64,000 nt of DNA, from assembly GCA_005400705.1 (NCBI GenBank), contig GCA_005400705.1_4079.1. One strand, written 5' to 3'. Positions 9,958 through 64,000 of this stretch are shown here, one piece after another. Numbering within the stretch: position 1 is the first letter of the stretch; every line of letters begins with the position of its first letter. The translations under genes and the position numbers were made by a program. This DNA comes from Escherichia coli (GTDB lineage Bacteria; Pseudomonadota; Gammaproteobacteria; Enterobacterales; Enterobacteriaceae). Below the pieces are notes generated by a model. It saw only the letters and a list, made by a program, of their open reading frames with translations. It was not told the DNA's origin and searched no databases.

Positions 9958-9958
9958 T

Positions 9959-10153: not shown

Positions 10154-10161
10154 GGTAAAAA

Positions 10162-11021: not shown

Positions 11022-11031
11022 GGAAAGTACA

Positions 11032-11586: not shown

Positions 11587-11595
11587 AGGGTGCTG

Positions 11596-12164: not shown

Positions 12165-12364
12165 AGACGTTTCATTTTGACAGGCCGCAGGGGGGTCAAA
12201 AAAATTTCCGCTGAAAAACATGCTAAGGTATATGTTTAATATAAAGTTTTATATTGTGTTTTTCAGAGTACAGTTTATGTTTCCTGAAACAAAAAAAAAA
12301 TACCCCGCCACCGAACGTGCTCCTTATATTGGAGTTTACCTTATTAATTATAGTAGAGATTAAG

Positions 12365-13454: not shown

Positions 13455-13463
13455 GATTATAAA

Positions 13464-13958: not shown

Positions 13959-13959
13959 A

Positions 13960-14867: not shown

Positions 14868-14869
14868 TA

Positions 14870-15358
14870 ATGTCATTACAAAGTGCATTGAAAGAAGCAA
14901 AGAAAATTCATGAGTACATGATTATGGTACAGGAAGGTTCAGTACCAGGTGTATACAAAACATCAGATACGGAATTCTTCGTTAAGGATAGAGATGATTA
15001 TGACGAATCAGAGGTATGTGCAGAAACATTAGTACTGCACACTGATACTGGTGACAGTGATAACTGTGAATATCATATGTACAACCAGTACATTAGTTAT
15101 TGCCGTAATGAAGATATTACCATCTACAACACAGATAGTGATGCTGATGACACTATCATTCCTTATTCAGTACTGGAAGGTCAGTGGGATAGTGAAGAAT
15201 ATTACTTCCAGAATAGTACTATCTACAATGAAGAAGAACTGGATGTTATTGTGATTATGTGGTATTTCAAAAGTATTGACTCCAGTAGTTTCTATTTTGA
15301 TTATGAATATGTAGAGAATACAGTAGGAGAAGGTAATGTCATTACAAAGTGCTCTTGA
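14870..15358 (+). CDS. family B protein (subfamily B2)
   Basis: N-terminus MSLQSALKEAKKIHEYM; core EEYYFQNSTIYNEE. Confidence 0.7.
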   Translation: MSLQSALKEAKKIHEYMIMVQEGSVPGVYKTSDTEFFVKDRDDYDESEVCAETLVLHTDTGDSDNCEYHMYNQYISYCRNEDITIYNTDSDADDTIIPYSVLEGQWDSEEYYFQNSTIYNEEELDVIVIMWYFKSIDSSSFYFDYEYVENTVGEGNVITKCS

Positions 15359-15788
15359 AAAAGCAAAAGAACTACATGGATACTTTGAAGATATAAAGGC
15401 CGGAAAGTTCAAAGAAGTGTACAAAGCCGAGAACGGTAACTACTACAAAGATGAAATGTATAATAACTCCGTTAGTGTAAGGGTTATTCTTGGGTTGAAT
15501 TCCAATAGTCCTATATCGTTTTCTGAATACAATAGAGATGCAGAATTTATTAGTTATGTTGAAAATGGTAGCATTCGTTTTATTAATAGACAAAAACCAT
15601 TAATTTTGAATTATGAAGTACTGAATGGTCCGTGGAATAGTGAAGAGTATTACTTCCAAAACAGTACTGTATATGATGATGAAGTACTTGAAGCATTAGT
15701 TATTATGTGGTACTTCAAGAGTGTTAGCTGTCCTCGATTTTATTTGGATTTCGAAGATCTTCGTAAAGATCCAGAAGGTATAGAATGA
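15336..15788 (+). CDS. family B protein (subfamily B2)
   Basis: N-terminus MSLQSALEKAKELH; core EEYYFQNSTVYDDEVLEALVIMWYFKS. Confidence 0.7.
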   Translation: MSLQSALEKAKELHGYFEDIKAGKFKEVYKAENGNYYKDEMYNNSVSVRVILGLNSNSPISFSEYNRDAEFISYVENGSIRFINRQKPLILNYEVLNGPWNSEEYYFQNSTVYDDEVLEALVIMWYFKSVSCPRFYLDFEDLRKDPEGIE

Positions 15789-16099
15789 AAAACTTATTCA
15801 GTGTTCAGTACGTTCCTGGTGAAATTGGTTTATTGTATCTATTTGACCATGATAATTCATTATTACTAGTAGTGAAGAAATGCCAAGCTAGTTCGTTTGT
15901 TGAATACATTCACGATAGTGAATACATTCCTGATTTCCTAGAGTGTGATTATCACGATGAACATGAATCATTTATTTTTCAGGAATCACTCGTTTGGAAT
16001 AAGTCTATTAACTTCTTTACGTTAATTGAATTACAAAAGCAGGTGAAGTATCATTGGGATTACTTAATTACACAGGATTACATTGAGATAGAAATATAA
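15785..16099 (+). CDS. family B protein
   Basis: Core ESFIFQESLVWN; ATGA overlap. Confidence 0.65.
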   Translation: MKNLFSVQYVPGEIGLLYLFDHDNSLLLVVKKCQASSFVEYIHDSEYIPDFLECDYHDEHESFIFQESLVWNKSINFFTLIELQKQVKYHWDYLITQDYIEIEI

Positions 16100-16407
16100 T
16101 GACTAAAAATGAATTTGATTCACTTTGTACGGTTTATAATTCATTGACAGAAATACCTGACTTTATTAATTACATTTCAGCTTTAAATCAAATTATGCAT
16201 AGTTTTGAACAATCGTTTGAAGAGAAATATGCAGGTAGAAAAGTTCTATGTCATATGTCAATGTACTTGGGAGATGGTGAGCCTTACACTACCAGTACTA
16301 CATGTGAAATAAAAAAATATAATATATTATTGGGGACAATAGAATTCAAGGTATCCAATGGTGGTAGTTATATGTACTTTAGAGATGGAGTGGTTGAATT
16401 ATTATGA
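16099..16407 (+). CDS. family D-like small protein
   Basis: Motif EEKYAGRKVLCHMSMY; tiling ORF. Confidence 0.55.
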   Translation: MTKNEFDSLCTVYNSLTEIPDFINYISALNQIMHSFEQSFEEKYAGRKVLCHMSMYLGDGEPYTTSTTCEIKKYNILLGTIEFKVSNGGSYMYFRDGVVELL

Positions 16408-16853
16408 GTTACGAAAGTGCAATCAAGAAAGCAAATGATATTCTAAAAGTTGTTAAGTTCTTCAAAGAAAATCCTGAATACTTAGCTGATGAAAACCATG
16501 ATCACGATGAGAGATTGAGACGAAAAATTGTTTCTTTATTTGACACTAATGCAGATAATTATAGTCTAATTGAGTTAGCATACGATTATATTTCATTGAA
16601 CCGAAACGGAAATTTAGTTAATATAGAAAGACATGAGAGTGAAGAATCTTTTAAAATTTCAGACATTTTATCCCTGAGTACTGAAGAAGGGTACTTCCAG
16701 GGTAGTACTGTTTATGAACAAGGAACACTTGACAATCTATGCACATTCAGTGTAATATATCAGAAATCAGTACTGGATGTATTTTATCTTGACACTGCTG
16801 AACTGGATACACTAACCAATTTTGTTACTACTGAAGAGGCCACATTCGAGTGA
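16404..16853 (+). CDS. family B protein
   Basis: Core EEGYFQGSTVYE. Confidence 0.65.
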   Translation: MSYESAIKKANDILKVVKFFKENPEYLADENHDHDERLRRKIVSLFDTNADNYSLIELAYDYISLNRNGNLVNIERHESEESFKISDILSLSTEEGYFQGSTVYEQGTLDNLCTFSVIYQKSVLDVFYLDTAELDTLTNFVTTEEATFE

Positions 16854-17386
16854 TGAAAGTTAACATCAATGACTTTGATGCATTACAAGATTTATCAAAA
16901 AAGATTCGTATCATCGTACCAGTACTAAAAAAATGCAGTACTGGTTTAATTGATCCTAGTACTGTTGTTAATGAGAAGTACAATTTTCATCGTGTATTAC
17001 AGGGTACAGGTGCATTTCAGAAGTGTGATGTACGTGAGAAACACGTAATTGATACATCATTGTTTTCTATTGGTGCACCTGTGTCGAATAATTCTATTTT
17101 CTTGGATAACGCAGGAAATATTCAACAATTAACATTTAAGAAAAGGAAAAAGAACAATAACATTGGTGTGTACGCGATGAAGTGGGGGCAACCTGATTTG
17201 AAGCGTGAAATTCACATCCCTAAGTACAATTACAATGCATTTGACGAACAGTGTTTTCAACTATCGTGTACTGACCCTGACTATGCAATCATTCAGTTCT
17301 ATATGGAATTGCAGATAGCATTTAATAGTAATTTGTATATTAACTTATTGGCGATGAACATCGATGAAGTATTCAAAAACATTTAA
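16850..17386 (+). CDS. family B protein
   Basis: Core DEQCFQLSCTD. Confidence 0.6.
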   Translation: MMKVNINDFDALQDLSKKIRIIVPVLKKCSTGLIDPSTVVNEKYNFHRVLQGTGAFQKCDVREKHVIDTSLFSIGAPVSNNSIFLDNAGNIQQLTFKKRKKNNNIGVYAMKWGQPDLKREIHIPKYNYNAFDEQCFQLSCTDPDYAIIQFYMELQIAFNSNLYINLLAMNIDEVFKNI

Positions 17387-17582
17387 TCGAATTGAATACA
17401 TGAGAACTGTGAGTGCAGTGTGGGATATATGGTTCACTACTAAACCAAAAATGGATTACCATGACTTTAAGCTATTGTTCTTCATTGGCTCTAACAAACA
17501 GGATGTTGCAATGAAGGGTTATATTCAGCACTTACAGGAACTAATACAGAAGAGGGTTAATGAAAATAATAGACCAAGATGA
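17364..17582 (+). CDS. family A-like small protein
   Basis: Motif FIGSNKQDVA; start could instead be ATG 17400. Confidence 0.5.
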   Translation: MKYSKTFNRIEYMRTVSAVWDIWFTTKPKMDYHDFKLLFFIGSNKQDVAMKGYIQHLQELIQKRVNENNRPR

Positions 17583-17751
17583 TATTGCTAAACTATTCAA
17601 TATATATTCTACTAGAATGATGCAAACAGACTCATATAGTACTGAATTCAAAGAGTTGAAAGTACTGATGTACTTGGGAACCCAATATCAGGAACAAGTT
17701 ATTTTGGAATATATTAATTCGTTGAAGAAGGATATCCGTTATGTACGATGA
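17560..17751 (+). CDS. family A small protein
   Basis: Motif YLGTQYQEQV; isolated inside the B array. Confidence 0.6.
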   Translation: MKIIDQDDIAKLFNIYSTRMMQTDSYSTEFKELKVLMYLGTQYQEQVILEYINSLKKDIRYVR

Positions 17752-18301
17752 TTTAGATCTTGCGTTTGAACGTATGGTAATTTTAATGCAATGTGCAGAA
17801 ATGCATGAAACAATCCGTCGCACCAAAGGGATTGAATATACAAGTAAACTATTCTCATACGAAAGTCGTCGAGGGATGGATCATTTTTACTGCACTGATT
17901 GTTCAAAGTTTTCAGTACTGAAATATTATCATCCTACTGTTTCCAATAATAGTTTAATATCCACATATGATGGTGATCTGTTTAGTGTAATGTATGACAC
18001 ATTACATCCATCAATTTCAATCTATAAAGATTGCGATAGTAGTTTATCGTATATAATTGAAGATTACTTATCTCCTAATACTGAAGAGAATATTTTTCAG
18101 AACAGTGTGTTGCATGATGAATTAAGTATAAAATGCATCTATATGTTCAATAAGTTAAAAGAGTACGCCGATAATAATTACTTCATTGATGATTTAGCGG
18201 TATTGTCTGTTTCCGTTTTTAATACAAATGATATTGATATGAAATACTATAATGAGATTTGTAAAGTACATCATATGTATAAGGAACTATTATGTCAATA
18301 A
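17741..18301 (+). CDS. family B protein
   Basis: Core EENIFQNSVLHD. Confidence 0.65.
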   Translation: MYDDLDLAFERMVILMQCAEMHETIRRTKGIEYTSKLFSYESRRGMDHFYCTDCSKFSVLKYYHPTVSNNSLISTYDGDLFSVMYDTLHPSISIYKDCDSSLSYIIEDYLSPNTEENIFQNSVLHDELSIKCIYMFNKLKEYADNNYFIDDLAVLSVSVFNTNDIDMKYYNEICKVHHMYKELLCQ

Positions 18302-18894
18302 ATGCAAATAAATGTTGTAGTGCAAATGTGCATTTGTTTTTTAAGAAATTAGCAAATGATATTATATATATGCAGGAAATGATTTATCACAAACGAGCGG
18401 ATTTAGAAAAAGCATTAGTACAGTTCTCATTTATGCTTGATGGTGATATATTTCTAGAGAGTGATGCATTGCGAATAGTATTAGACAAAAATGCTAAAAG
18501 ATTTTTATTTCATATAGATAATAAATTATGTTCCTCCGTATGTCGTACTTTTTATAATCGTGATTCGGACTTATATCAATTCCTTTATTCCAAAGGTGCA
18601 GTAGAAGCATCATATGGTGATGGTTATGCCCTAGGAAAGAGTATTCCATTTATGAAATCATTTAAAATAGAACACATCAGTACTGATGAAGATGCAATGT
18701 TCACAAATGATATAACTATGGGACGTGAAGATGCAATGCGATATATTACAAATTCTATGCATACATTCTTTCAACGAACAGAATTTGATAATGTATATAT
18801 ATCAAATGTAAATATTTTCAATGACCTGTGTCAGTACTTGAGAAGTGTTTGTGACTTCGATGAAAGTTATTGTAAGCTATACACTGAGGTATAA
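18292..18894 (+). CDS. hypothetical protein (degenerate family B-like)
   Basis: 200-aa tiling ORF; weak core DAMFTNDIT. Confidence 0.5.
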   Translation: MSINANKCCSANVHLFFKKLANDIIYMQEMIYHKRADLEKALVQFSFMLDGDIFLESDALRIVLDKNAKRFLFHIDNKLCSSVCRTFYNRDSDLYQFLYSKGAVEASYGDGYALGKSIPFMKSFKIEHISTDEDAMFTNDITMGREDAMRYITNSMHTFFQRTEFDNVYISNVNIFNDLCQYLRSVCDFDESYCKLYTEV

Positions 18895-18899
18895 AACAA

Positions 18900-19262
18900 A
18901 TGAACACATTAAGTATTACATACTATACAACTAAAAAATTAGTTACTTGTTTAATATCTTTGAAGACAAACCATGATGATATGTTTGATATGGCTGCATA
19001 TGAATTAGAATTATCAGAAGATGGCTTCAAGAGCTATGAATTATATAGCTATGTCCGTGAAGATGTAATTGACACTACACTAATGCAAGAGGATGAGTTA
19101 TTCCAAGAAAGTTTAGTATGGGATAATAAGTACGATTGTAACTTTGATTTCTTATGTTTAATCCAGAAAGAAATGAAAAGAATCTTTGATAATTATCCAA
19201 TCAAACGTTTCAGTACTGCACCTGAGCAATATAAAAGGATTATATTCACCTATGAAGATTGA
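18900..19262 (+). CDS. family B protein
   Basis: Core EDELFQESLVWDNKY. Confidence 0.65.
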   Translation: MNTLSITYYTTKKLVTCLISLKTNHDDMFDMAAYELELSEDGFKSYELYSYVREDVIDTTLMQEDELFQESLVWDNKYDCNFDFLCLIQKEMKRIFDNYPIKRFSTAPEQYKRIIFTYED

Positions 19263-19629
19263 ATTTGAAGTTATTACATATAGTATAGGTGATGGTATCC
19301 GTTGCTATGTACAAGCAAGGCATATGGTTCCTGATGATAAACTGTCACCCAAAAGCTTCTGTATCACACAAGATCTCTTAGATATCAACGGAGAGTACAA
19401 GTACATATATTATCTTACTAAGGGTTATTGTAGTACACGTGGTTTTAATATTGTAGCTGTTTCTAGAGATGAAATTGATGATTTAACTGAGTACGGGGAA
19501 GAAGAGATGTTCCAGTACAGTACTGTTTTTAATGAACTGGATGTGTTTCTGTTACGAAAAATACAACACATTATGCAAAAATGTTTGCATCATAAGAGAG
19601 GTATTGTATGCGACGTGAATCTGAATTAG
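19252..19629 (+). CDS. family B protein
   Basis: ATG 19252 overlapping upstream end; core EEEMFQYSTVFN. Confidence 0.6.
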   Translation: MKIEFEVITYSIGDGIRCYVQARHMVPDDKLSPKSFCITQDLLDINGEYKYIYYLTKGYCSTRGFNIVAVSRDEIDDLTEYGEEEMFQYSTVFNELDVFLLRKIQHIMQKCLHHKRGIVCDVNLN

Positions 19630-19949
19630 TTAAAGTAATGTACGCTACTCATATTAAACTACTACTTGTTAAATTTGATTATAATAAAAAACATAATGAT
19701 TTCTATACTTTAATTCGTGATGAAAATACATTCTCCTTGCGATGCAACAATATACCCTTGAAGATAAATGATTTTACTTCACTTGACGAGGGGGAATTAT
19801 TTCAAGAATCATTAGTTTTTAATAGTAATATAAAAATTGATATAGAAGTTATTAAAAAATACCAGATTCTATTGAACAAAATTATGAATTGTTATCCATG
19901 TGAAATAGGTGGTCATATGCAGTTCAAATCAAAAATGTATGAATTATGA
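19608..19949 (+). CDS. family B protein
   Basis: Core EGELFQESLVFN. Confidence 0.65.
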   Translation: MRRESELVKVMYATHIKLLLVKFDYNKKHNDFYTLIRDENTFSLRCNNIPLKINDFTSLDEGELFQESLVFNSNIKIDIEVIKKYQILLNKIMNCYPCEIGGHMQFKSKMYEL

Positions 19950-19956
19950 GGTTTAT

Positions 19957-20493
19957 ATGTTAGATAAAAAAATGAACTCTGGAACCCAATATAATCATCT
20001 TAAGTTGGATACATTCGAATCAGCTATCAGTACAGCACAAGATATAATTGATATTATCAAGTTCATTAAAGAAGATAAGTTCAAATGTTTGAAAATACTA
20101 AATCGTTCAATGTACCGTGATAAAAATATTCATGTATCAGTACGTAGACCGAAAGATCAAGAAAGTGGGAGAGATTTCTATAACAACAGTGAGCAGTTCG
20201 AATGTGAATATGATCCAGAATTTAGAGGTGGTTTCATGTGTTACTGTATGAAGGATACCTCACACATTGAGATACGTTCATCGAAAGGTGGCATACGTAC
20301 ATTAGAGTTTATTGATATAGTTTTAAATCAGGAATACTACTTTCAACTATCATTATTGTTTCCTGCATACGATTTAGGAGTTCTATTCATGTATAAGTAC
20401 TTTTATGAGCACTGGAATGAAGACTTCTATCTGGACTTAGAAGATTACCAATTAGTTTGGAAAGAAATGGTAAAACTTCGCAACCCATCTTGA
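19957..20493 (+). CDS. family B protein
   Basis: ATG 19957 with GAGG upstream; core NQEYYFQLSLLF. Confidence 0.6.
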   Translation: MLDKKMNSGTQYNHLKLDTFESAISTAQDIIDIIKFIKEDKFKCLKILNRSMYRDKNIHVSVRRPKDQESGRDFYNNSEQFECEYDPEFRGGFMCYCMKDTSHIEIRSSKGGIRTLEFIDIVLNQEYYFQLSLLFPAYDLGVLFMYKYFYEHWNEDFYLDLEDYQLVWKEMVKLRNPS

Positions 20494-23274: not shown

Positions 23275-23834
23275 ATATCAATGATTACCAATTTCATAGG
23301 CTTGAATTTCGTCATTGTGTTGCATTTGCAAAAACATTGATGTGCATCATTGACACTCTTTCATCCAAACAATTTCGTAAGGATAATGATTTATTTCTGA
23401 AAAAAGGTCGTGTAACATCAACTGATATCGGTATTGAACTATTTGTTGATATCAGTGTTGATACCGGAGACAGTACAAGGGTTGGTTGTATAGGTCATAT
23501 TGGTACACATTGCTTCACATGGAATCCAAATACAAGTCAAGTGCGAATTGATTATAGAAATTCACGTTGGGTTGATCTTAGTACTGAATCAGATTTAGAA
23601 TCAGCTATGTTCCAGCTAAGTTTAATTCATAATCCTAATGAACTTCTTTACATTATTACTTTCAGTTATCTGTTACAAAACTACGATAATCCATCAGGGT
23701 TTTTCATGGAATCGGATATAGAAGAAATTATGGCAGTGTTTCCTAGTTTAAAGGATATTCTGGAAGAAAAAGATTTCTATGAAGACTTCAGAGATTTATA
23801 CGACATGCACTTGGAGTTATTTAAGAATGGATAA
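23271..23834 (+). CDS. family B protein
   Basis: Core ESAMFQLSLIHN; ATGA overlap. Confidence 0.65.
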   Translation: MNINDYQFHRLEFRHCVAFAKTLMCIIDTLSSKQFRKDNDLFLKKGRVTSTDIGIELFVDISVDTGDSTRVGCIGHIGTHCFTWNPNTSQVRIDYRNSRWVDLSTESDLESAMFQLSLIHNPNELLYIITFSYLLQNYDNPSGFFMESDIEEIMAVFPSLKDILEEKDFYEDFRDLYDMHLELFKNG

Positions 23835-24345
23835 AGATGATATTCTAATTAGACTAATTAATAGTTTAATAAAGTTCTCAAATAATGATGTCGATACATA
23901 CAAAGTAGGGGATATTGAATTTAAATCATTTGGTATGTACGGTGAGGATAAAACATATTATGCGTCAATGAAATTTCAAGATTTTCACGAGATGTTAATA
24001 TCGTTATCATATGAAGATGTTGATCCAAGATGGAGTTCCAGTATTTCACTATCGAGAATGGTAATTCGTAGTAAGCATCGTTATATTTCGTCAAAGAATA
24101 CTCCTAACTTGATTAATATTGTGTTGAATGAAAATACAAATCCCCTATCTAAACATGATATCGTACCGTTAACCGATGAAGTTCTTTTTCAATTGAGTAC
24201 CATTTGTGATGAAGATGTGATATCATGTATGAAAATTTATGAGAAGGTTGGGAGTGATATTCCCATGAACTATTACCTAACTATAGATGGAACGTACCTT
24301 CGAGATGAGGTTCTAGCGTACATTGACAGTGTTTTACCAAAATAA
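23827..24345 (+). CDS. family B protein
   Basis: ATG 23827 overlapping upstream stop; core DEVLFQLSTICD. Confidence 0.6.
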   Translation: MDKDDILIRLINSLIKFSNNDVDTYKVGDIEFKSFGMYGEDKTYYASMKFQDFHEMLISLSYEDVDPRWSSSISLSRMVIRSKHRYISSKNTPNLINIVLNENTNPLSKHDIVPLTDEVLFQLSTICDEDVISCMKIYEKVGSDIPMNYYLTIDGTYLRDEVLAYIDSVLPK

Positions 24346-27705: not shown

Positions 27706-28257
27706 ATGAACTACAATCATGATCTTTTTACATTATGTGCATCCAAATGTGTTGATGGATGGACAGATAAAATCAATACCATAATTCATCGATATCTGGT
27801 CTTTAGTTCTCGTGCACGAAGTGAGGGGGCTATGGATTTCAAATATACACTATCTATTGATGGTGTAACTATCCATGCAGACGAAGAACGTCTGAGCATT
27901 AATTTGTATGATTCCTGTGTATTTGCTATTCACCAAAAGATGGGGAAAGGATGGGGTTGTAATAACATTAACTCAAAAGCTATCTTTTGGGTTGGTCACC
28001 ACCAGACAGTACTTGATCCTTCAATCAAATCTAATCTTTTATCCGATAATATGGTTTATGATTTATTGTACTCCGAAGAACAACATTTTCAGTTAAGTAC
28101 ATTACATGATCTGGCACAGTACGAGGATTGTTACAAAACATTAGAACTATGCCATTCCCTTGAACTTAAAGATAAATTGATACAAGTTTACCCTTCATTC
28201 TTTCATGAAGAAGTACAAAGTACACTAGATCATATTTTATATGGATACGATAAATGA
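27706..28257 (+). CDS. family B protein
   Basis: RBS AAGGAG; core EEQHFQLSTLHD. Confidence 0.65.
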   Translation: MNYNHDLFTLCASKCVDGWTDKINTIIHRYLVFSSRARSEGAMDFKYTLSIDGVTIHADEERLSINLYDSCVFAIHQKMGKGWGCNNINSKAIFWVGHHQTVLDPSIKSNLLSDNMVYDLLYSEEQHFQLSTLHDLAQYEDCYKTLELCHSLELKDKLIQVYPSFFHEEVQSTLDHILYGYDK

Positions 28258-56761: not shown

Positions 56762-57139
56762 TTGATTTATTTTGAACTACCAGAATATACCAATTATCCA
56801 AGCCGAGTTATTTGCTCAGTTTATAGTAATGCATATCATCACTTGTTAGTGAATAGTAATAAAGCTGTGCATTATTATCGAAATAAAGAACCACGTACAT
56901 TAAAGAATCGTTATGGTTTTGACCCAACTAACACTGAAGTTGAACTCTGTGATCTGTTTGGGGAAGTAATGGTGGTGTTGAAACGAGATATTCATCTTTT
57001 CCATACATACAAACTTAATCAGTACTTTATGGAAACACTGTCTATACGTTCCCATGCTCCGATGATTAAAGTTGATTTGAATTATGTTGATGATAAATTG
57101 AAATATGATTTCATAAATTCACTTGTTTATTTGGAGTAA
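56762..57139 (+). CDS. hypothetical protein
   Basis: No ATG available; TTG 56762 eight nt after GAGGA (GTG 56756 also possible). Confidence 0.45.
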   Translation: MIYFELPEYTNYPSRVICSVYSNAYHHLLVNSNKAVHYYRNKEPRTLKNRYGFDPTNTEVELCDLFGEVMVVLKRDIHLFHTYKLNQYFMETLSIRSHAPMIKVDLNYVDDKLKYDFINSLVYLE

Positions 57140-57140
57140 T

Positions 57141-57545
57141 ATGAATATACGTTCAGTACGAATATTTTCATTTGTTGATATGAATGAAAAACACTCTTAT
57201 GTGTTTGAAACTGTCAATAAGTTAAATCCTCATACGGCAAAAATGATTGAAACCATGAAGATCTTGAGTTTGCATATAGAAGTTTACTATCTTCATGACG
57301 ATTCTGTTTTTGTATATGATGATGGATGGTATGACGGTGTGTTTTATGATGACATTAGCACTACTGCTGATTACTACTTTCTAGTGAGTAACCCACTATT
57401 CAGTACTAAAACTTTGTTTGACATTACCGATACAAGCGTGTATGATACAACTCATGTTGAGTTACTTAAGTTTGATCCAGTATTATTCAACAAAGAGACG
57501 GCGTATTGGATGACTGATTTCTTTTCAAATATTCCAGTAAAATAG
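57141..57545 (+). CDS. hypothetical protein
   Basis: ATG 57141 five nt after TGGAG. Confidence 0.55.
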   Translation: MNIRSVRIFSFVDMNEKHSYVFETVNKLNPHTAKMIETMKILSLHIEVYYLHDDSVFVYDDGWYDGVFYDDISTTADYYFLVSNPLFSTKTLFDITDTSVYDTTHVELLKFDPVLFNKETAYWMTDFFSNIPVK

Positions 57546-57546
57546 T

Positions 57547-57575
57547 TTGGACATTTTAAATCTTAGTGATATAAT
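57547..57575 (+). promoter_or_regulatory. sigma70-like promoter with extended -10 (TTGGAC-17-TGATATAAT)
   Basis: -35-like TTGGAC 57547-57552, -10 TATAAT 57570-57575 preceded by TGA; upstream of clpP RBS AGAGGAAA. Confidence 0.6.
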
Positions 57576-57609
57576 ACTCACAACAACGAAATAATAGAGG
57601 AAATTAATA

Positions 57610-58305
57610 ATGGTTGAACAATTCATGTTTGGTGGTTATGCTAATGGCGAAGTACGTAACATTTCTATTCCTTACGTAGTTGAGAAAGTTAATGGTTCAG
57701 AACGTACATATGATCTAGCATCTCGTATGATGCAAGACCGTATCATTTTCCTTGATACTGATTTCAATGATCAAATGGCACATATCATCAAACAACAATT
57801 GGTATGGTTAGACTCACAAGGTGATTCCCCTATTACATTCTACATTAGTTCACCGGGTGGTTCAGTACACGCAGGTTTGGGTATTGCAGATGTTGCTAAG
57901 TCTTGTATTTCGCCAATTCGCACTGTAGTAATGGGCTATGCAGCATCAATGGGTTGCTATACACAATCTGTTATTGGGACTAAAGGTTTCCGTTTAGGTG
58001 GTAAACGCTCATACTTCATGTGTCACCAAGTAAGTTCTGGTACACAAGGTCTAATTACAGACCAGAAGATTTCCCTACAACATTCTGATGCACTGAATAC
58101 ATTGTTGACCAAAGAAATTGCAGAAGCTGTAGGTGTATCACATGAACAATTACTAAAAGATGCTGACCGCGATTTGTGGTTAAATGCAGAAGAAGCACTT
58201 GAATATGGTGAACATGGTTTCATTGATGGTATTATTCTTGGTCCACGTAACGAAGAAGGCAAGTACTTAGTTAAGCGTCGCGGTGGTGTAGAAGAGTGGG
58301 TGTAA
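57610..58305 (+). CDS. clpP: ATP-dependent Clp protease proteolytic subunit (ClpP-like)
   Basis: ERIIFLD, ISSPGGSVHAG, GYAASMG (catalytic Ser) and downstream His (MCHQ) in ClpP order. Confidence 0.75.
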   Translation: MVEQFMFGGYANGEVRNISIPYVVEKVNGSERTYDLASRMMQDRIIFLDTDFNDQMAHIIKQQLVWLDSQGDSPITFYISSPGGSVHAGLGIADVAKSCISPIRTVVMGYAASMGCYTQSVIGTKGFRLGGKRSYFMCHQVSSGTQGLITDQKISLQHSDALNTLLTKEIAEAVGVSHEQLLKDADRDLWLNAEEALEYGEHGFIDGIILGPRNEEGKYLVKRRGGVEEWV

Positions 58306-58353
58306 GATAGATTTTGATGCCTCAATATGGGGCATCATCTTTGTGGAGATTAT

Positions 58354-58644
58354 ATGAAAGTACTAGTACGTAATAATACGGAAGTAGCAAATGTATTAGA
58401 AGATTCCGATTTTATTAATGTTGCGTTCGATCAAATTAGTGCAGTAGCACTTGAATTAAAAAATGTAGATGAATCTGAGCGTGTGCTGAATGGTTTTGCA
58501 ATTGTACTTGAATTAATGAATGAAGTACTAATTAAAAAGAACATTAATCCAGTTGATGCGGTTCAACATGCAGAAGCTGTGCGTAAAGAACACGGTACAT
58601 TCTCTGACAAAAAATACATTCAAACTGATGAGGTAAAAGAATAA
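58354..58644 (+). CDS. hypothetical small protein
   Basis: ATG 58354 after GGAG. Confidence 0.5.
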   Translation: MKVLVRNNTEVANVLEDSDFINVAFDQISAVALELKNVDESERVLNGFAIVLELMNEVLIKKNINPVDAVQHAEAVRKEHGTFSDKKYIQTDEVKE

Positions 58645-58645
58645 T

Positions 58646-59092
58646 ATGTCCAATGCACAATATAAAGATGGTTATGACGCATACAAAGCAAAAGTAGTTC
58701 TAAGTGCTGAACAGCTAAAAATGCAGCATCCATTCTATCGTCAGGGCTATCGTGCAGCACAAGCAGAAGCAATGAAGAAAAATAATGTAACTTTCCCTAC
58801 TACACTATATGATATTCCAAAACGTCCACACATTTTTAAAGCTGAATGGACTGATATTATGGCAGCGACAAAGCGTCCACGCTTTGCTAAATTACACACC
58901 GATGAAGGTCGCTGGTTGCTAATGGGGATTATGAAAGCAGTTGAGAATCAATCTCATAAGATTGTTCGTTATAAAGATGTTGTTGCTATGGTTGATAAAG
59001 CATTTGACCTTGTACTTCAATATGGTTATGATGAAGGTGTTCTAACTGTTTCTGATTGTGAAAAATATCAGTACACCCCATATCAAAAATAA
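58646..59092 (+). CDS. hypothetical protein
   Basis: 148-aa ORF followed by terminator. Confidence 0.55.
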   Translation: MSNAQYKDGYDAYKAKVVLSAEQLKMQHPFYRQGYRAAQAEAMKKNNVTFPTTLYDIPKRPHIFKAEWTDIMAATKRPRFAKLHTDEGRWLLMGIMKAVENQSHKIVRYKDVVAMVDKAFDLVLQYGYDEGVLTVSDCEKYQYTPYQK

Positions 59093-59102
59093 TATTGTGA
59101 AA

Positions 59103-59131
59103 AGGAATCCTATCATGGGATTCCTATTTTT
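59103..59131 (+). terminator. rho-independent terminator
   Basis: Hairpin AGGAATCC-tatcatg-GGATTCCT followed by T-run. Confidence 0.75.
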
Positions 59132-59218
59132 ATTGCTGTATATCAATTTTCCATTGATCATATTTTGATCTATATGAGCTAAATACCCAAGGAATCATTG
59201 TTACTAGGGTAGGTGAAT

Positions 59219-59767
59219 ATGCAGCAATATAATTTAACTGAAGAACAAAGTGATATTTTTTACCATCATATGTTTTTAATTGATGAATTTGCTTTAAAAA
59301 TTAATTCTGAAGCAATTGATATATTGAAGAAATGGTATAGTTGTTATAATAAAAACAAAAAGTGGTATTGGTTTAATAGAAATATAAAATCATTTCTAAA
59401 AACAATCACATACACTGATAGTATTGAGTTAATACATAGTTCTATTGGATATAGTTACTTAACTAAACACAACAGTACTATGATGTTATCAGGGTTTAAA
59501 GTTGAAAGAATTTCCAAGTTAACAGGTTTGTCATTAGAAACAATTCTATATGATATTGAGAAAATTTGGAAAACTATAGAATTAATGCATAAAAATATGT
59601 CATTCATATATAGAAATTATGATATATTCACTGATGTACGACAATATCATAATAAACCGTATGTATTGGATGAAAAGTACTATAATCATATGGAAGTTTG
59701 TTCTAAACTCGTTGATGATTGGAATCTAGAGGGACATAATGAAATACACACACCTAAGTATAGATGA
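59219..59767 (+). CDS. hypothetical protein
   Basis: ATG 59219; very AT-rich. Confidence 0.5.
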   Translation: MQQYNLTEEQSDIFYHHMFLIDEFALKINSEAIDILKKWYSCYNKNKKWYWFNRNIKSFLKTITYTDSIELIHSSIGYSYLTKHNSTMMLSGFKVERISKLTGLSLETILYDIEKIWKTIELMHKNMSFIYRNYDIFTDVRQYHNKPYVLDEKYYNHMEVCSKLVDDWNLEGHNEIHTPKYR

Positions 59768-60263
59768 TACTAATATCTGGTTAGATAACATAATCAAGAC
59801 ATTAGAATTAATTAAACTTACATTACAAAAAACTACAGATATTGAAATTAATATTAAAAAAGAAATATTAAACTATTATCATAGAAACAAATATAGCACG
59901 TTTATCTCTAAATTAATTTATGGATTATATGATATTGAAGATATTTGCATCGGTTACAGTACTGGTATTTGCTTCACTGTTAATGGTTTAAAAAATGATT
60001 TAAATTTCAGACTTTCCGATGAAGAGCAAAAGTTTCGTAGATTTTGTGATAATATTATGGATACAGATAAAATTACATTTGTTATTGAATTAAATCAAAC
60101 GTGGTCTACATATGCAGATAAACCATTTGAAATTAATGAAACAGATGTGTTAAACTATATTCGAGTTATGAAAATTCATGATTTGTGTAAAAACGCATTG
60201 TTAAGTATTGGAGCTTATAATGAAACATACGACTTGGTTGAAGATAGCAGAAGTAGTTGCTGA
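59739..60263 (+). CDS. hypothetical protein
   Basis: 174-aa ORF; overlaps both neighbours. Confidence 0.5.
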   Translation: MKYTHLSIDDTNIWLDNIIKTLELIKLTLQKTTDIEINIKKEILNYYHRNKYSTFISKLIYGLYDIEDICIGYSTGICFTVNGLKNDLNFRLSDEEQKFRRFCDNIMDTDKITFVIELNQTWSTYADKPFEINETDVLNYIRVMKIHDLCKNALLSIGAYNETYDLVEDSRSSC

Positions 60264-60699
60264 GGAAAGTAAATGTATTTCACAAAAAGTTGGTTGTGTT
60301 ATTGTTAAAAATAACCGAGTATTGAGTACTGGTTACAATGGTACTCCATCAAAACAACCAAATTGCTGTGATGTGAATCAACACTTAGTCAATGATGGGC
60401 GTTTTCAAGACTGGGTTAGTGATGAAGCAAAGCATGAACATCATGAGTGGAGTAATATTCATGAAATCCATGCTGAAATGAACGCTTTACTCTATAGTTC
60501 TCCTACTGAACGTCAAGGTGCTACTCTTTACACAACACTACAACCATGTTATACTTGTTCTAAGTTGATCGCAGGTAGTGGGATTTCACGTGTAATTTAT
60601 CTCAAAAATTATCCTCGTACACCACCAGAAGCTATTAAAGTACTGGAAGATGCTGGAATTATTGTTAATTGCATTTATGATAAGGGTCTTGATAAATGA
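60220..60699 (+). CDS. cd: dCMP deaminase
   Basis: Zinc-binding HAEMNAL and PCYTCSKLI motifs of cytidine/deoxycytidylate deaminases; ATG 60220 after GGAG. Confidence 0.8.
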   Translation: MKHTTWLKIAEVVAEESKCISQKVGCVIVKNNRVLSTGYNGTPSKQPNCCDVNQHLVNDGRFQDWVSDEAKHEHHEWSNIHEIHAEMNALLYSSPTERQGATLYTTLQPCYTCSKLIAGSGISRVIYLKNYPRTPPEAIKVLEDAGIIVNCIYDKGLDK

Positions 60700-60953
60700 C
60701 AGTAATAATTATTATTGCTTTTCTAATAACAGTGTTTTTCATTTTTATGTTATATATAGTTGCTATGGATGAACCTAATACTTCTTTTCGAAATTATGAA
60801 GTTCGTTTTTCTGCACAAAATAATAAGTACTATATTGTAAACTGTATACACCGTAGTGAGAAAAGGGTAACAAGTAGATTTGGATTTACCATTTATTATA
60901 AAGACCGAGTAGAAGCTGATATGATTTGTCAGAAGCTTAATACTGTAGAATAA
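60696..60953 (+). CDS. small membrane protein
   Basis: Hydrophobic N-terminus MTVIIIIAFLITVFFIFMLYIVAM; ATGA overlap. Confidence 0.55.
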   Translation: MTVIIIIAFLITVFFIFMLYIVAMDEPNTSFRNYEVRFSAQNNKYYIVNCIHRSEKRVTSRFGFTIYYKDRVEADMICQKLNTVE

Positions 60954-60981
60954 AAAAAGGAGCCGTATGGCTCCTTTTTTG
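60952..60981. terminator. bidirectional rho-independent terminator
   Basis: A-run, hairpin GGAGCC-gtat-GGCTCC, T-run; lies between convergent gene ends 60953 (+) and 60982 (-). Confidence 0.75.
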
Positions 60982-61359
60982 TTAACCAGGGAGGTTACAA
61001 TAATACAAATCCCAAGGGTGATATTTCATCGCACCAGTACTCAATTTAATTTTATGAAACTGGAATGATTCGGCAAATGCACTATCGTCAATCTTAATAC
61101 AAAAAGTGTTTTTGGCTAGAGTTGGTGCAATTTCCAATGCTGTTTTAGATGCATCTAATCTGATTTTATCTTTATCAAAACTTGTTATAGTTACAAAACG
61201 ATAAACATTAAAATCAGTGTCGATAAGATCGTAAACACAACTAGAACGTTGATTAAAGATGTTCAAGTTATATTTCAATTCACCGTTTATATTAGCTGCG
61301 GTTACACAAAACCCGCCGATATTGAATGGTAGTTTACCTTGTGCTGCGATAGCTTTCAT
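60982..61359 (-). CDS. hypothetical protein (only minus-strand gene in the window)
   Basis: 125-aa ORF with AAGGA upstream of its ATG on the minus strand; not antisense to any plus-strand gene. Confidence 0.6.
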   Translation of the reverse strand: MKAIAAQGKLPFNIGGFCVTAANINGELKYNLNIFNQRSSCVYDLIDTDFNVYRFVTITSFDKDKIRLDASKTALEIAPTLAKNTFCIKIDDSAFAESFQFHKIKLSTGAMKYHPWDLYYCNLPG

Positions 61360-61429
61360 ATTTTATTTCCTTTTTTAAATATAAGTATGAAATATATTTG
61401 TTTTTTACATCAGATGCACCATGAACTAG

Positions 61430-61458
61430 TTGACAAAACATCAGTGGTATGATATGAT
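61430..61458 (+). promoter_or_regulatory. sigma70-like promoter (TTGACA-17-TATGAT, TG-extended)
   Basis: -35 TTGACA 61430-61435, 17-nt spacer, -10 TATGAT 61453-61458 in context TGATATGAT. Confidence 0.55.
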
Positions 61459-61585
61459 CTGTTATAAACTGTACACCTTAAGTTTTATTTTTTAAAAATT
61501 TGAGTTAAGTACAGAAAAAGTTTGACTTAAGTGTTTAAGTACTATATTATTTATATCTTCCTAAACAAAATTGAGGACTTGTTAT

Positions 61586-62194
61586 ATGAAAAGACTATGG
61601 CTTGAAGTGATACAAGCAGCAATGTTTCTATTGTTAATAAATTTTCCAGCCAGTGCTGGTATTGAAAGTAAAAATGTGATAAAGTATAATCCTGAAACCC
61701 GAAATGTATATTTCATATCAGATATTACAGATGGGTCACTCAAGAGAATGATAGAGTTGTATGATAAAGAACACTATGATACCATCACAATTACATCTCC
61801 TGGTGGTGATTTTGATGCAGGTATTCGAATGGCAAACTTTGTTAGAGACAATGGGATAAATTTAATTGTTTCTAGGTATTGCAATTCAGCATGTACTGTG
61901 GTATTCTTTAGTGTATCTCCCGAAAAGCGATATATGACAAATCGCTCAGTACTGGGTCTTCATAACATTTCGATTAAAAGTAATGTTACTGATGGTGATA
62001 ATTCATTTGTATCTGTAAGACAGCTATCAACTTTTACCGAAGAAATGGCAACAAAGGTAGGTTTCCTTTTTTCACTATATGCAGCAAATGGAATCCCACC
62101 AGAAGTACTATTTAGAGTTAGTCGTTCTCGTGGTGAAGATGTTGTAATATTAACAAAACCAGAACTGGTTTTTTACGGTTCAGTCAAACAATAA
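61586..62194 (+). CDS. secreted ClpP-fold (S49/NfeD-like) serine peptidase candidate
   Basis: ATG 61586 after GAGGA; signal-peptide-like N-terminus with ASAG; ITSPGGDFDAGIRMANF ... CNSACTVVF resembles the ClpP/NfeD SPGG...AG...SA pattern. Confidence 0.4.
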   Translation: MKRLWLEVIQAAMFLLLINFPASAGIESKNVIKYNPETRNVYFISDITDGSLKRMIELYDKEHYDTITITSPGGDFDAGIRMANFVRDNGINLIVSRYCNSACTVVFFSVSPEKRYMTNRSVLGLHNISIKSNVTDGDNSFVSVRQLSTFTEEMATKVGFLFSLYAANGIPPEVLFRVSRSRGEDVVILTKPELVFYGSVKQ

Positions 62195-62264
62195 AAATAA
62201 TTAAAATAACAGGATGATTATGATGTACTTCCTTTGTTATTAATTATATTGAGATTATATAACT

Positions 62265-62525
62265 ATGACAAACATCCAAAACTTGACATCTATTATTTTT
62301 TATGCTACTGTAGTAATGTATGCTACAGTTATTTTTCTAACAGTTTTCATTTACAAAGATTATCGCAATGGCTTTATTGATCCAACTACAATGAAGTTCA
62401 ATTCAAAATTCGAAGCAATAATTTATTATGTACTATCAACTTCATACTTGGTGTGCCTAATGTTGTTAGGAGCACTAATTTATATCTTATACACAACATT
62501 ATTTGCAATTGGAGCTATTTTATGA
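62265..62525 (+). CDS. small membrane protein
   Basis: Three hydrophobic segments. Confidence 0.5.
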   Translation: MTNIQNLTSIIFYATVVMYATVIFLTVFIYKDYRNGFIDPTTMKFNSKFEAIIYYVLSTSYLVCLMLLGALIYILYTTLFAIGAIL

Positions 62526-63115
62526 CCTGTATTATTGCACACACTAACGGAGTAAGTTCTTTTATTGCTGGGGATAAGTTAGGAAGCAATGGATTTACAA
62601 AAACTGTTCAAACTGAACCAAAGGTATTCGAGAAAGAATTTATCAAGTTACATGATGATGGACTAACAAGAACTAAAGAAGTAATGGCATTGGGTTATAC
62701 TACATCATTTCGTATGGGTCAGTTGTTAAATTATAACCTTAATTTACCTGAACAAGATGCTAGTCAAACATTTTCACAATATTTGGTTCTTAAAGTTATT
62801 CCAATTATTCGTCAAATGTTTAAAGAAGAATGGGGTGCACGAGATGCATCACAAGATGTAGGTGGTGGACAATTTATCATTCTCCACAATCATACAATCT
62901 ATGAAGTTCAAGAAGACTTTTCAGTACTACAACCTAAAACAAGAATTACCGCAGTAGGTAGTGGGACATATCATGCAATTGCAGCAATGCAAGCATATAT
63001 TGAAGTTGAGAACGAATCTAAAAAACCACTACACGAACGTATCAAATCAATTTTTAAAATTGTTAGTGATAATGTAACAAGCGTAAGCGAAGAGTTTGAT
63101 GTTTTAAAATATTAA
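62522..63115 (+). CDS. HslV-like Ntn-hydrolase peptidase
   Basis: ATG 62522 in ATGA overlap; Thr at position 2 (MTCIIAHTNG...IAGD) and C-terminal ITAVGSGTYHAIAAMQAY resembling HslV GSGG...A...A. Confidence 0.5.
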   Translation: MTCIIAHTNGVSSFIAGDKLGSNGFTKTVQTEPKVFEKEFIKLHDDGLTRTKEVMALGYTTSFRMGQLLNYNLNLPEQDASQTFSQYLVLKVIPIIRQMFKEEWGARDASQDVGGGQFIILHNHTIYEVQEDFSVLQPKTRITAVGSGTYHAIAAMQAYIEVENESKKPLHERIKSIFKIVSDNVTSVSEEFDVLKY

Positions 63116-63142
63116 AAGTACTAATATTATAAGAGAGAATAG

Positions 63143-63337
63143 ATGATGGCATACACAATTTATGAATGGGTTTTGAGTTTTTTTATAGTTTTTTCTATTG
63201 TTGTAATTTATAACCATGCTAAATGCTTATATAGGGACTTGAAATCCAATGGTTATCACAAAGATAATAATTTTATGTATGCCTATCATATTGGAATCAT
63301 TCTGTTATTATCAATATATTTAATTGTTTTTTTATAA
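63143..63337 (+). CDS. small membrane protein
   Basis: Two hydrophobic segments. Confidence 0.5.
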   Translation: MMAYTIYEWVLSFFIVFSIVVIYNHAKCLYRDLKSNGYHKDNNFMYAYHIGIILLLSIYLIVFL

Positions 63338-63346
63338 GGATTGAAT

Positions 63347-64000
63347 ATGATATCAGAAAAATTTATAAGCAATGAAGGTAAAAAGCGATTACTGATTATA
63401 TCAGGTGCAGGACTTTCTGTTGAAAGTGGTATGGAACCTTTTCGATTTGATGATGGTTTGTGGGATACATTTAAAATTAATGATGTATGTAACATTGCGA
63501 GTTTAACTACAAAATATCATGTTGTTCATTCTTTCTATAATACATTACGTGTAAAATTGGGACAATGCGAACCGAATGCAATGCATTATTTTATAAAATC
63601 GTTAGAAGATCAATATGGTGATTGCTTCCTTCATATGACTTCTAACATGGACGATCTTTATACTCGTATTGGTGGTCATGAGCTTAAACTTCATGGAAAC
63701 TTGTGTGAAGTTATTGAAAATTATAGTATCAATTCCGATGATTATAATGTTATTAACTGCGGATACGAACCATACATACCAAAACATGATGTTTTTGCTA
63801 AACCAAATGTAGTAATGATTGGAGAATATCATCGTTATGTTGATGGTATTCGCTTACCAATTTACGAAGAACGAAATAATGTGTTGAAATCTCTTAATGA
63901 AAATGATACAGTTATTGTAATTGGTAGTAGCGATACAGTACTGGTATGGTCGAGATTAGCAGCAGCATTGCCATGTTATAGTGTTAATGTTAACATTCGT
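63347..64000 (+). CDS. Sir2-family NAD-dependent deacylase / ADP-ribosyltransferase (3' truncated)
   Basis: ATG 63347; open to window end; N-terminal GAGLSVESGMEPFRFDDGLWD matches the Sir2 GAGIS..SGIP.FR...GLW motif, then HMTSNMDDLY and HGNL. Confidence 0.7.
   Translation, partial: MISEKFISNEGKKRLLIISGAGLSVESGMEPFRFDDGLWDTFKINDVCNIASLTTKYHVVHSFYNTLRVKLGQCEPNAMHYFIKSLEDQYGDCFLHMTSNMDDLYTRIGGHELKLHGNLCEVIENYSINSDDYNVINCGYEPYIPKHDVFAKPNVVMIGEYHRYVDGIRLPIYEERNNVLKSLNENDTVIVIGSSDTVLVWSRLAAALPCYSVNVNIR

Follow-up and report, generated by a model that had tools for sequence, protein, structure and literature searches.

The DNA considered here is a stretch of 64,000 nucleotides, hereafter the window, filed under Escherichia coli (assembly GCA_005400705.1, contig GCA_005400705.1_4079.1), in which three peptidase-like genes lie within 5.5 kb of each other, between positions 57610 and 63115 (Table 1). 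The first encodes a ClpP, the second a predicted exported protein with the ClpP fold, here called P2, and the third a proteasome-like hydrolase, here called P3; the three genes do not look like one module or one machine. The window is DNA of an Asteriusvirus jumbo coliphage of the PBECO4/121Q type, which belongs to the Rak2-like group of myoviruses with genomes of ~350 kb. Over bases 57000-63500, the identity is 99.3-99.4% with Escherichia phages BF17, SP27, PBECO4, G17 and others, and 93% with phage 121Q. The whole window aligns in reverse orientation to ~66.5-129.3 kb of PBECO4, with an identity of ~97% in its right two-thirds (20000-64000) and of 84-92%, with small gaps, at its left (1-20000).

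The three open reading frames (ORFs) are all on the + strand, where a preliminary description of this DNA, made from its letters, had placed them. Their start codons agree with the public annotations of near-identical phages, and a Shine-Dalgarno-like sequence (GAGG/GGAG) stands 9-11 nucleotides 5' of each. The central observation of that description, three peptidase genes close together, stands: the ORFs are intact, their products have peptidase folds and the nucleophiles are conserved, so that neither of the two grounds that would have overturned it, absent catalytic residues or non-peptidase folds, applies. The cluster itself is ordinary and was already present in public phage annotation. 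The GenBank record of 121Q labels the same three ORFs as gene 464 'protease (ClpP-like)', gene 473 'protease (ClpP-like)' and gene 475 'protease (ClpYQ-like)', and Pharokka-style records name them 'head maturation protease', 'protease' and 'HslV family peptidase'. The families have been discussed in the literature, and the novelty of the cluster is low.

Judged by sequence comparison, the first ORF encodes a genuine ClpP with its Ser-His-Asp triad in place, as had been proposed. It passes the gathering score of Pfam CLP_protease (E=4e-41, 141 bits, cut-off 20.2) and matches 109 solved ClpP chains in the PDB (best E=1.4e-36). In the alignment with E. coli ClpP (37% identity), Ser113, His139 and Asp188 fall on S97, H122 and D171. 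The protein stays below the cut-offs of the NCBIfam models (151.6 vs 308.6 bits for TIGR00493; 155.2 vs 249 bits for NF001368) and appears to be a member of a divergent clade, no close orthologue of cellular ClpP. Its homologues in this clade are 58-96% identical and are found on ~350-kb contigs, in GAP32, in RaK2 and in Erwinia phages; cellular ClpPs come next, at ~45%. The catalytic triad is invariant in 65/65 clade members, and so are the axial-loop residues P4, V6, E8, E14 and R15 and the Asp/Arg sensor pair; ~19 N-terminal residues precede the axial-loop motif IPYVVE. The pocket on which the IGF/IGL loop of the ATPase docks appears to be remodelled: set against 43 cellular ClpPs, the 65 phage proteins show L114->G (61/65), F82->N/S, Y60->T and the loss of R192, while Y62, I90 and M92 are kept. 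The clade also has its own C-terminal extension of ~22 residues, with the pattern ...G.RN..GQ..V.RR(G/D)G..(E/D)WV, and the protein of the window ends in RRGGVEEWV. This apparently remodelled ATPase-docking pocket and the conserved tail would seem to be a modest new point; a phrase search of the literature for phage-encoded ClpP gave no match.

The candidate partners of this ClpP are encoded outside the window and were read from PBECO4, which is 97-99% identical over this part of the window. PBECO4 gp539 is a ClpA orthologue with the domains AAA, AAA_lid_9, AAA_2 and ClpB_D2-small and no room for a ClpB middle domain; in an alignment of 732 residues it is 43% identical to E. coli ClpA, and its score on the ClpA model TIGR02639 is 755 bits. 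The docking tripeptide, IGL in E. coli ClpA, is IGM in PBECO4, IGV in RaK2, LGM in CBB and MGM in XbC2, and each ring of these four phage ClpAs has its Walker A and B motifs intact. A second PBECO4 protein, gp457, carries a ClpS domain at 24.7 bits, vs a cut-off of 23. RefSeq calls both the ClpA orthologue and the ClpS-like protein merely 'ATP-dependent protease'. In the phage collection, records with ClpA (E<=1e-80) and with the phage ClpP clade (E<=1e-40), counted by host genus, go together: 33/33 for Escherichia, 8/8 for Salmonella, 8/8 for Erwinia, 4/4 for Yersinia, 2/2 for Cronobacter, 2/2 for Pectobacterium and 11/10 for Klebsiella. The conservation of ClpA across Rak2-like phages had been reported earlier (Attai et al. 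2018; PMC6102473). A tblastn search of the assembled PBECO4 genome with E. coli ClpX and HslU returned weak matches to the ClpA gene only, and matches to E. coli ClpX in the phage collection fell in other phage groups. The preliminary description had pointed to ClpX or HslU as partners to be looked for; a partner ATPase is indeed encoded by PBECO4, accompanied by the weak ClpS-like protein, but it is a ClpA, and no phage ClpX or HslU was found. From these data we infer a phage-encoded ClpAP pair.

The same residues bear on a different explanation, according to which the phage ClpP would work mainly with host ClpX/ClpA, or form mixed rings with host ClpP, and so hijack the selection of substrates by the host. 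The axial-loop residues that contact ClpX/ClpA are conserved as in cellular ClpPs, and the protein retains 37% identity to host ClpP. For Iyer et al. (2021; PMC7824862), ClpP is a peptidase of patchy distribution in group 1 and 2.2 jumbo phages that is probably directed at the host; their proposal is that the ClpP and ClpS of jumbo phages act on host proteins by way of host systems. A remodelling of host proteolysis, as suggested in the preliminary description, is plausible and was thus proposed before for jumbo-phage ClpP. However, the docking pocket differs from that of cellular ClpPs at the very positions listed above (L114, F82 and R192), and the phage encodes a ClpA whose docking tripeptide is not that of the host enzyme and which co-occurs strictly with the phage ClpP. 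We therefore regard hijacking of host unfoldases as unlikely.

Several RefSeq and Pharokka-style records present clpP as the prohead (head-maturation) protease. The top PHROG match of the protein is phrog_94 'head maturation protease' (5e-44), and this name is widespread on Rak2-like ClpPs, including the RefSeq records of PBECO4 (gp105), RaK2 (gp046) and GAP32 as well as E9.1. However, PBECO4 possesses a Peptidase_S77 of the T4 gp21 type, gp520, whose gene is flanked by those of the major head protein (gp518) and of the portal (gp523); an S77 'prohead core scaffold and protease' was detected in phAPEC6 virions (PMC7247149), and Iyer et al. (2021; PMC7824862) give the prohead-protease role to the S77 enzyme. 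The clpP gene sits among ligase, deaminase, Sir2 and PhoH genes, outside the head module. Its product reaches 51 bits (cut-off 120) on the head-maturation model NF045542 vs ~150 bits on cellular ClpP models, retains the axial-loop residues for ATPase coupling and co-occurs with the phage ClpA. The virion proteome of phAPEC6, which does include PhoH and a 14.10-kDa protein from the peptidase neighbourhood, lists no protein of 25.5, 22.7 or 22.2 kDa from the peptidase region (PMC7247149). The head-protease role is thus largely refuted and keeps scarcely any probability; the evidence indicates that the label is wrong, and PHROG 94 is its probable source.

P2 is predicted to be an exported ClpP-fold protein with a SxGG...CxSxC...H signature and a Ser-His dyad without a conserved Asp; its motifs read S71-P-G-G, C99-N-S101-A-C103 and H126-N. 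Searches of PDB sequences with P2 or P3 as single sequences gave noise only, and profiles and structure prediction were needed. P2 scores 17.5 bits on Pfam CLP_protease, under the cut-off of 20.2, and matches PHROG 26024 'protease' over its full length. Its profile finds PDB ClpP at E=0.004; in the alignment the SPGG motifs of the two coincide, and Ser101 and His126 take the places of the nucleophile and of the catalytic His. An AlphaFold model built from nine sequences has a predicted local distance difference test (pLDDT) score of 71, with stretches of poor quality at residues 17-29 and 126-150; the best 50 Foldseek matches of this model are all ClpPs, from E=2e-6 and with a template modelling (TM) score of ~0.55. 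The N-terminus, MKRLWLEVIQAAMFLLLINFPASA followed by G, resembles a signal peptide (MKR, a hydrophobic stretch, then ASA before the G); the XaC1 orthologue begins with MKLLKYIVTVFIFTLSISSANA followed by G, and the N-terminus of the RaK2 orthologue is hydrophobic. Twenty full-length relatives share invariant S71, G73, G74, C99, S101, C103, H126, N127, Y165, G169 and P171, and no conserved acidic residue occupies the position equivalent to Asp171. The preliminary description of P2 as a signal-peptide-bearing ClpP-fold protein holds for the fold and, by prediction, for the signal peptide, but the protein is not a full ClpP, the Asp of the third triad position being unconserved. Since P2 is predicted to be exported and lacks this Asp, it would not be a subunit of the ClpXP or ClpAP type.

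The family to which P2 belongs is large. A profile search of 1.84 billion representatives retrieved 1,895 relatives at E<=1e-3, and the signature was counted in the best 149 of them: the S of SxGG is present in 149/149, a Cys at -2 of the nucleophile in 145/149, the Ser nucleophile in 146/149, a Cys at +2 in 148/149 and the His in 136/149. By a crude test, 90 of these 149 have signal-peptide-like N-termini. Metagenomic relatives also carry predicted signal peptides. No Pfam or NCBIfam model, both collections having been scanned, covers the family, which may correspond to COG3904 'predicted periplasmic protein'. We read P2 as a peptidase of the periplasm with a Ser-His dyad and a probable disulfide that spans the nucleophile, and the CxSxC signature of this large exported ClpP-fold family without a name would be a further modest new point. 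At both of the two loci of bacterial relatives that were examined, an anecdotal sample, the neighbourhood is that of an exporter: at one the gene overlaps that of a C39-peptidase ABC exporter, at the other it adjoins genes for an ABC ATPase and a HlyD/AprE-type adaptor (L104:2945-5756 and L105:1252-5750).

P3 has the fold of the N-terminal-nucleophile (Ntn) hydrolases. Its AlphaFold model, built from 37 sequences, reaches a pLDDT of 91.9 and is as near in structure to BPH as to HslV. M1, T2, C3, D18, K34, G146 and G148 are invariant in 37 homologues. The family profile matches HslV chains at E=1.6e-7 and aligns M-T-C-I with M-T-T-I, D18 with Asp17, K34 with Lys33 and VGSG with IGSG; an insertion at about residues 38-56 is specific to Asteriusvirus. 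P3 has no propeptide, and removal of the initiator Met would therefore expose Thr1. The proposal that P3 is an HslV-like N-terminal-threonine hydrolase is borne out as far as the Ntn fold and the Thr1, Asp and Lys residues are concerned, but the protein falls far under the cut-offs of the HslV equivalog models (18.9 vs 157.75 bits for TIGR03692; 20 vs 137 bits for another) and no HslU was found in its phage type. The family occurs in 198 phage records, from T5-like Epseptimavirus, Vibrio and Aeromonas phages to Xanthomonas jumbo phages and Salicola phage SCTP-2. Phage-borne group I proteasome homologues, named PPH, AAH and CPH, were described by Fuchs, Alva and Lupas (2021; PMC8665760), and it is among these group I proteasome-like homologues that P3 fits best. 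Assignment to PPH is unlikely in view of the length of 197 residues (~140 in PPH) and the presence of both helix pairs.

The neighbourhoods of HslV-like genes were surveyed with 80 loci fetched from IMG/VR, 88 loci being analysed in all, which represent 38 lineages at 60% identity. No HslU gene was found in these 88 neighbourhoods, nor in PBECO4 by tblastn. These results weigh on the possibility that P3 is a replacement or poison subunit of the host HslVU, activated by host HslU or sequestering it. HslV is the closest characterised sequence family of P3, the host has HslU, and P3, which lacks a propeptide, would become active, as E. coli HslV does, once its Met is removed. On the other hand, P3 is structurally just as near to BPH, which has no known unfoldase, its scores lie far under the HslV thresholds, and the family is spread over phages of many hosts with no conserved partner. 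Fuchs et al. likewise found that the proteasome homologues which they described have neither a conserved context nor an AAA+ protein that co-occurs with them (PMC8665760). A role within the host HslVU seems to us quite unlikely.

Some relatives of P3 show arrangements of their own. In Aeromonas phage 4L372XY, two HslV-family genes are adjacent (genes 205/206, L019:3501-4897), one of the MTC type and one of the TT type, the product of the latter bearing a C-terminal extension of ~100 residues; from their sequences, the two may form a hetero-oligomeric phage proteasome-like pair. A search of PBECO4 for a second, canonical HslV-type gene like that of 4L372XY found none. On a phage-like metagenomic contig, the HslV-like gene has ~1.2 kb 5' of it a gene for a 604-residue FtsH-like protein (Peptidase_M41 and an AAA region; L015:2794-4608), and the contig also encodes an Apyc1-like anti-Pycsar protein with a metallo-beta-lactamase fold.

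For P2 and P3 alike, it can be asked whether either or both are proteases at all, or instead acyl or amide hydrolases, connectase-like ligases or inactive scaffolds that retain an ancestral fold. Neither protein reaches the threshold of any curated family, and P2 is without the third triad residue. Nevertheless, the catalytic positions are near-invariant in large and divergent families (Ser in 146/149 and His in 136/149 for P2; Thr, Asp and Lys in 37/37 for P3), and proteases are the best structural matches by a wide margin. A non-proteolytic nature is accordingly held to be improbable.

Table 1. Features of the peptidase region and related loci; positions refer to the window unless another record is named
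Feature	Position	Strand	Basis
Phage ClpP, 231 residues, 25.5 kDa	57610-58305	+	Pfam, PDB, NCBIfam, clade alignment
ClpP catalytic residues	Ser113 57946-57948; His139 58024-58026; Asp188 58171-58173	+	alignment
P2, exported ClpP-fold putative serine peptidase, 202 residues	61586-62194	+	AlphaFold (AF2) and Foldseek, profile
P2 predicted Sec signal peptide, residues 1-24, cleavage between ASA and G	61586-61657	+	hydropathy, by eye
P2 putative dyad	Ser101 61886-61888; His126 61961-61963	+	profile alignment to ClpP
P3, proteasome-like (HslV/BPH-like) N-terminal-nucleophile threonine hydrolase, 197 residues	62522-63115	+	profile, AlphaFold
P3 Thr2 (Thr1 after Met removal), Asp18, Lys34; G146-S-G148 loop	Thr2 62525-62527; Asp18 62573-62575; Lys34 62621-62623	+	alignment
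ClpA orthologue gp539, 762 residues	PBECO4 NC_027364.1 330788-333076	- (on fetched locus L011:31788-34076)	domain and identity
ClpS-like gp457, 181 residues	PBECO4 NC_027364.1 249684-250229	- (on fetched locus L010:684-1229)	marginal ClpS domain
Sigma-70-like promoter match TGGACA-16-TATAAT with upstream TG, 35 nucleotides before clpP start	57548-57575	+	consensus match only
Terminator-like hairpin, 10-bp stem, 10 nucleotides past clpP stop	58315-58337	+	pattern match only
Terminator-like hairpin after ORF 58646-59092	59103-59125		pattern match
Virion protein gene, 125 residues, 14.09 kDa	60982-61359	-	PHROG 33171 'virion structural protein', 6e-88
Sigma-70-like promoter match TTGACA-17-TATGAT with TG, 5' of P2	61430-61458	+	consensus match only
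Second sigma-70-like promoter match, 5' of P2	61522-61550	+	consensus match only
Membrane protein, 86 residues, at least two hydrophobic segments	62265-62525	+	stop overlaps P3 start as ATGA
Membrane protein, 64 residues, two hydrophobic segments	63143-63337	+	weak match to PHROG 18969 'membrane protein'
FQxS ORFs (examples)	6016-6561, 8161-8817, 23779-24345, 27706-28257	same strand	
PhoH/ClpP-fold/HslV-like contigs	L014:6005-7549, L020:5103-6555, L021:5020-6564, L022:5138-6564		metagenomic

The question that remains is whether the three genes are linked. By our own estimate, a random scatter of about five peptidase genes over 348 kb would yield ~0.01 triples within 5.5 kb. The preliminary description had suggested that the protease subunits of the cluster could process the FQxS family of proteins, encoded elsewhere in the window, and a phage 'degradosome', one proteolysis module working on common substrates such as the FQxS paralogues, has some features in its favour: three peptidase genes fit in 5.5 kb; P2, the 86-residue membrane protein and P3 follow each other on the same strand with tight spacing and an ATGA overlap; and a ClpP-fold gene stands 5' of an HslV-like gene in a second, distant phage lineage. 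Against it, the predicted place of P2 is the periplasm and that of ClpP and P3 the cytoplasm, and seven same-strand ORFs, one opposite-strand virion-protein gene and terminator-like hairpins part clpP from P2 and P3. Furthermore, P3 is not a constant member of the arrangement. In RaK2 (Klebsiella) and XaC1 (Xanthomonas) the order is ligase, ClpP, dCMP deaminase, opposite-strand structural gene, P2 and Sir2/Nudix/PhoH, and genes for a cytidyltransferase, an HNH protein and a NAPRTase occupy the slot of P3. In the survey of HslV-like genes, 36/38 lineages, T5-like phages included, have no ClpP-fold neighbour. Joint action of the three peptidases is consequently very unlikely, and the clustering suggests the synteny of a shared block rather than a functional unit.

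As to the supposed substrates, the FQxS paralogue family is real: at least 30 same-strand ORFs of ~100-220 residues between positions 3600 and 33300 of the window carry the FQxS motif at a similar relative position. Nothing was found that ties the family to the peptidase genes, and the idea that these peptidases process it finds no footing here. The tandem family corresponds to a run of 'hypothetical proteins' at ~100-123 kb of PBECO4. By its drop in identity to PBECO4, the region 1-20000 of the window appears to be mosaic, paralogue-rich and faster-evolving. PBECO4 also has ten tandem genes annotated 'regulator of chromosome condensation' (RCC1-like; NC_027364.1 157841-170100), several homologues of which are virion proteins in phAPEC6 (PMC7247149).

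Other candidate links were tried on the same 88 loci and rejected. A general two-gene module of a ClpP-fold and an HslV-like protein was seen in 2/38 lineages only. A small membrane protein as partner of the HslV-like protein had been suspected from the window, EPS7 and L023; hydrophobic neighbours upstream amount to 12-14% vs a background of 13%. No neighbour family, such as an ATPase, was conserved in more than 6/38 lineages, the most frequent being portal-like and PhoH proteins. The small membrane proteins that the preliminary description had noted among the peptidase genes are indeed there, with hydrophobic segments in both; the 86-residue one upstream of the HslV-like gene is kept only in Asteriusvirus relatives (L024, L026, L027).

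High-scoring promoter-like sites precede clpP and P2; over the region as a whole, 44 promoter-like sites were counted vs 41 +/- 5 in shuffled sequences, i.e. chance level. The opposite-strand gene between clpP and P2 is a structural gene inside a non-structural block. Its counterpart in 121Q is gene 471, 'structural protein; Ig domain', and the mass of its product agrees with that of the phAPEC6 virion protein gp347 (14.10 kDa, 75% coverage).

Taken together, these observations favour the explanation, to which we assign a probability of roughly 65%, that the locus holds three separate peptidases which are neighbours through a shared conserved block, ClpP being the core of a phage ClpAP, P2 acting in the periplasm and P3 in the cytoplasm. 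The block would be the 'auxiliary/early' one of Rak2-like jumbo phages, running from DNA ligase through ClpP, dCMP deaminase and the exported peptidase to Sir2-Nudix-PhoH. In it, ClpP would form the proteolytic core of a cytoplasmic ClpAP encoded by the phage; the phage ClpA, with its two rings and its hydrophobic-Gly-hydrophobic docking loop, would dock on this core. We hypothesize that the altered pocket and the ...RRGGVEEWV tail insulate the phage ClpP from host unfoldases, leaving the ClpAP made up of phage ClpA and ClpP at least partly insulated from host ClpX/ClpA. Its substrates during infection would be selected proteins of the host or of the phage. P2 would leave the cytoplasm via Sec and serve in the periplasm as a serine peptidase of the ClpP fold, with a Ser101-His126 dyad; the two invariant cysteines around its nucleophile could form a periplasmic disulfide, and its targets, at a guess, would be envelope or periplasmic proteins. 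P3, activated when Met removal exposes Thr1, would be a small proteasome-like threonine hydrolase that works in the cytoplasm and has no phage unfoldase dedicated to it, a mode proposed earlier for BPH and for the homologues carried by phages, and might still make use of host HslU.

Several points weigh against this explanation. The activity, oligomeric state, partners and substrates of the three proteins are all inferred. The model of P2 is only moderately confident and is poor around His126-150, which leaves the dyad putative, and its export was called by eye and from hydropathy. The partner genes are known from PBECO4 and not from the genome to which the window belongs, and the ClpS match of gp457 is marginal, some residues of the N-degron pocket being unaligned in our reading of the alignment. 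Promoter and terminator calls are pattern matches, at a promoter count no higher than chance, and the operon structure drawn from them is no more than suggestive. Finally, in most Asteriusvirus-like phages P2 and P3 lie side by side, and a distant metagenomic lineage shows in 4/4 contigs the order PhoH, ClpP-fold gene, small ORF, HslV-like gene and, further on, dCMP deaminase, which makes a second, independent case of ClpP-fold/HslV-like adjacency; in some lineages the two kinds of gene may thus be functionally linked. The ClpP-fold protein of these contigs has 216-276 residues, no signal peptide, a Cys at -2 of the Ser and an acidic, Cys-rich C-terminus.

A bolder version of the separate-peptidase explanation can be put forward tentatively, and we consider it doubtful as it stands. 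Rak2-like phages would have a private, orthogonal ClpAP(S) with co-varying ClpA docking loops, perhaps gated by the ClpP tail, together with a periplasmic peptidase of the disulfide-bracketed CxSxC type. If so, P2 would be a phage-encoded periplasmic ClpP-fold peptidase and the founding studied member of a large bacterial family.

If the inferences drawn for the three separate peptidases hold, this phage group is equipped with an ATP-dependent protease made up of ClpA, ClpP and a ClpS-like adaptor, and in addition with a proteasome-like hydrolase and a peptidase for the periplasm. Protein turnover would then be under phage control in two compartments of the host throughout the long infection of a jumbo phage, which would bear on host takeover by large phages and possibly on counter-defence. 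The analysis also corrects a widespread misannotation, that of Rak2-like ClpP as 'head maturation protease', and it offers two tractable biochemical targets: the putative insulated ClpAP pair and the CxSxC ClpP-fold family, which is uncharacterised and comprises ~1,900 representative clusters.

The three proteins may finally be set beside the systems they resemble. With bacterial ClpP (MEROPS S14), the phage ClpP shares the fold, the triad, the axial-loop and Asp/Arg sensor residues, a similar length and the presence of an N-terminal pre-sequence. It differs by its identity of only 37-45%, by scores under the NCBIfam equivalog cut-offs, by its pocket (L114->G, F82->N/S, Y60->T) and by the 22-residue C-terminal tail ending in WV; its gene, moreover, adjoins neither clpA nor clpX, the partner gene being ~260 kb distant. 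With the ClpP-related prohead proteases (PHROG 94; NF045542) it has in common a distant ClpP-fold homology and a name in automated annotations, whereas it is encoded outside the head module, in a phage that has a separate S77 enzyme, and is not in the phAPEC6 virion list.

HslV (ClpQ) and P3 share the Ntn fold, Thr1, Asp17, Lys33, the GSG loop, the absence of a propeptide and a similar size. P3 is distinguished from HslV by an identity of 15-19%, by the lack of a phage HslU, by its invariant Cys3, by a GYTTSFR motif and by the insertion at about residues 38-56. The resemblance to the group I homologues BPH, AAH, CPH and PPH lies in the compact subunit, the catalytic triad and the distribution in phages, and the P3 family is, like them, without a conserved context or a dedicated AAA+ partner.

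P2 departs from cytoplasmic ClpP at its very N-terminus: where the latter has the axial loops for ATPase coupling, P2 and its orthologues have a predicted signal peptide. SppA (S49) and the NfeD/1510-N peptidases are closer in this respect, and P2 shares with them the ClpP fold, the SxGG oxyanion motif, a nucleophilic Ser at the start of a helix and the predicted extracytoplasmic location; weak Pfam and PDB matches link it to NfeD1b_N (13.5 vs 40 bits) and PH1510. SppA and NfeD-type peptidases use Ser-Lys dyads. P2 differs from them by a conserved His at the position of the ClpP His and by its CxSxC motif.

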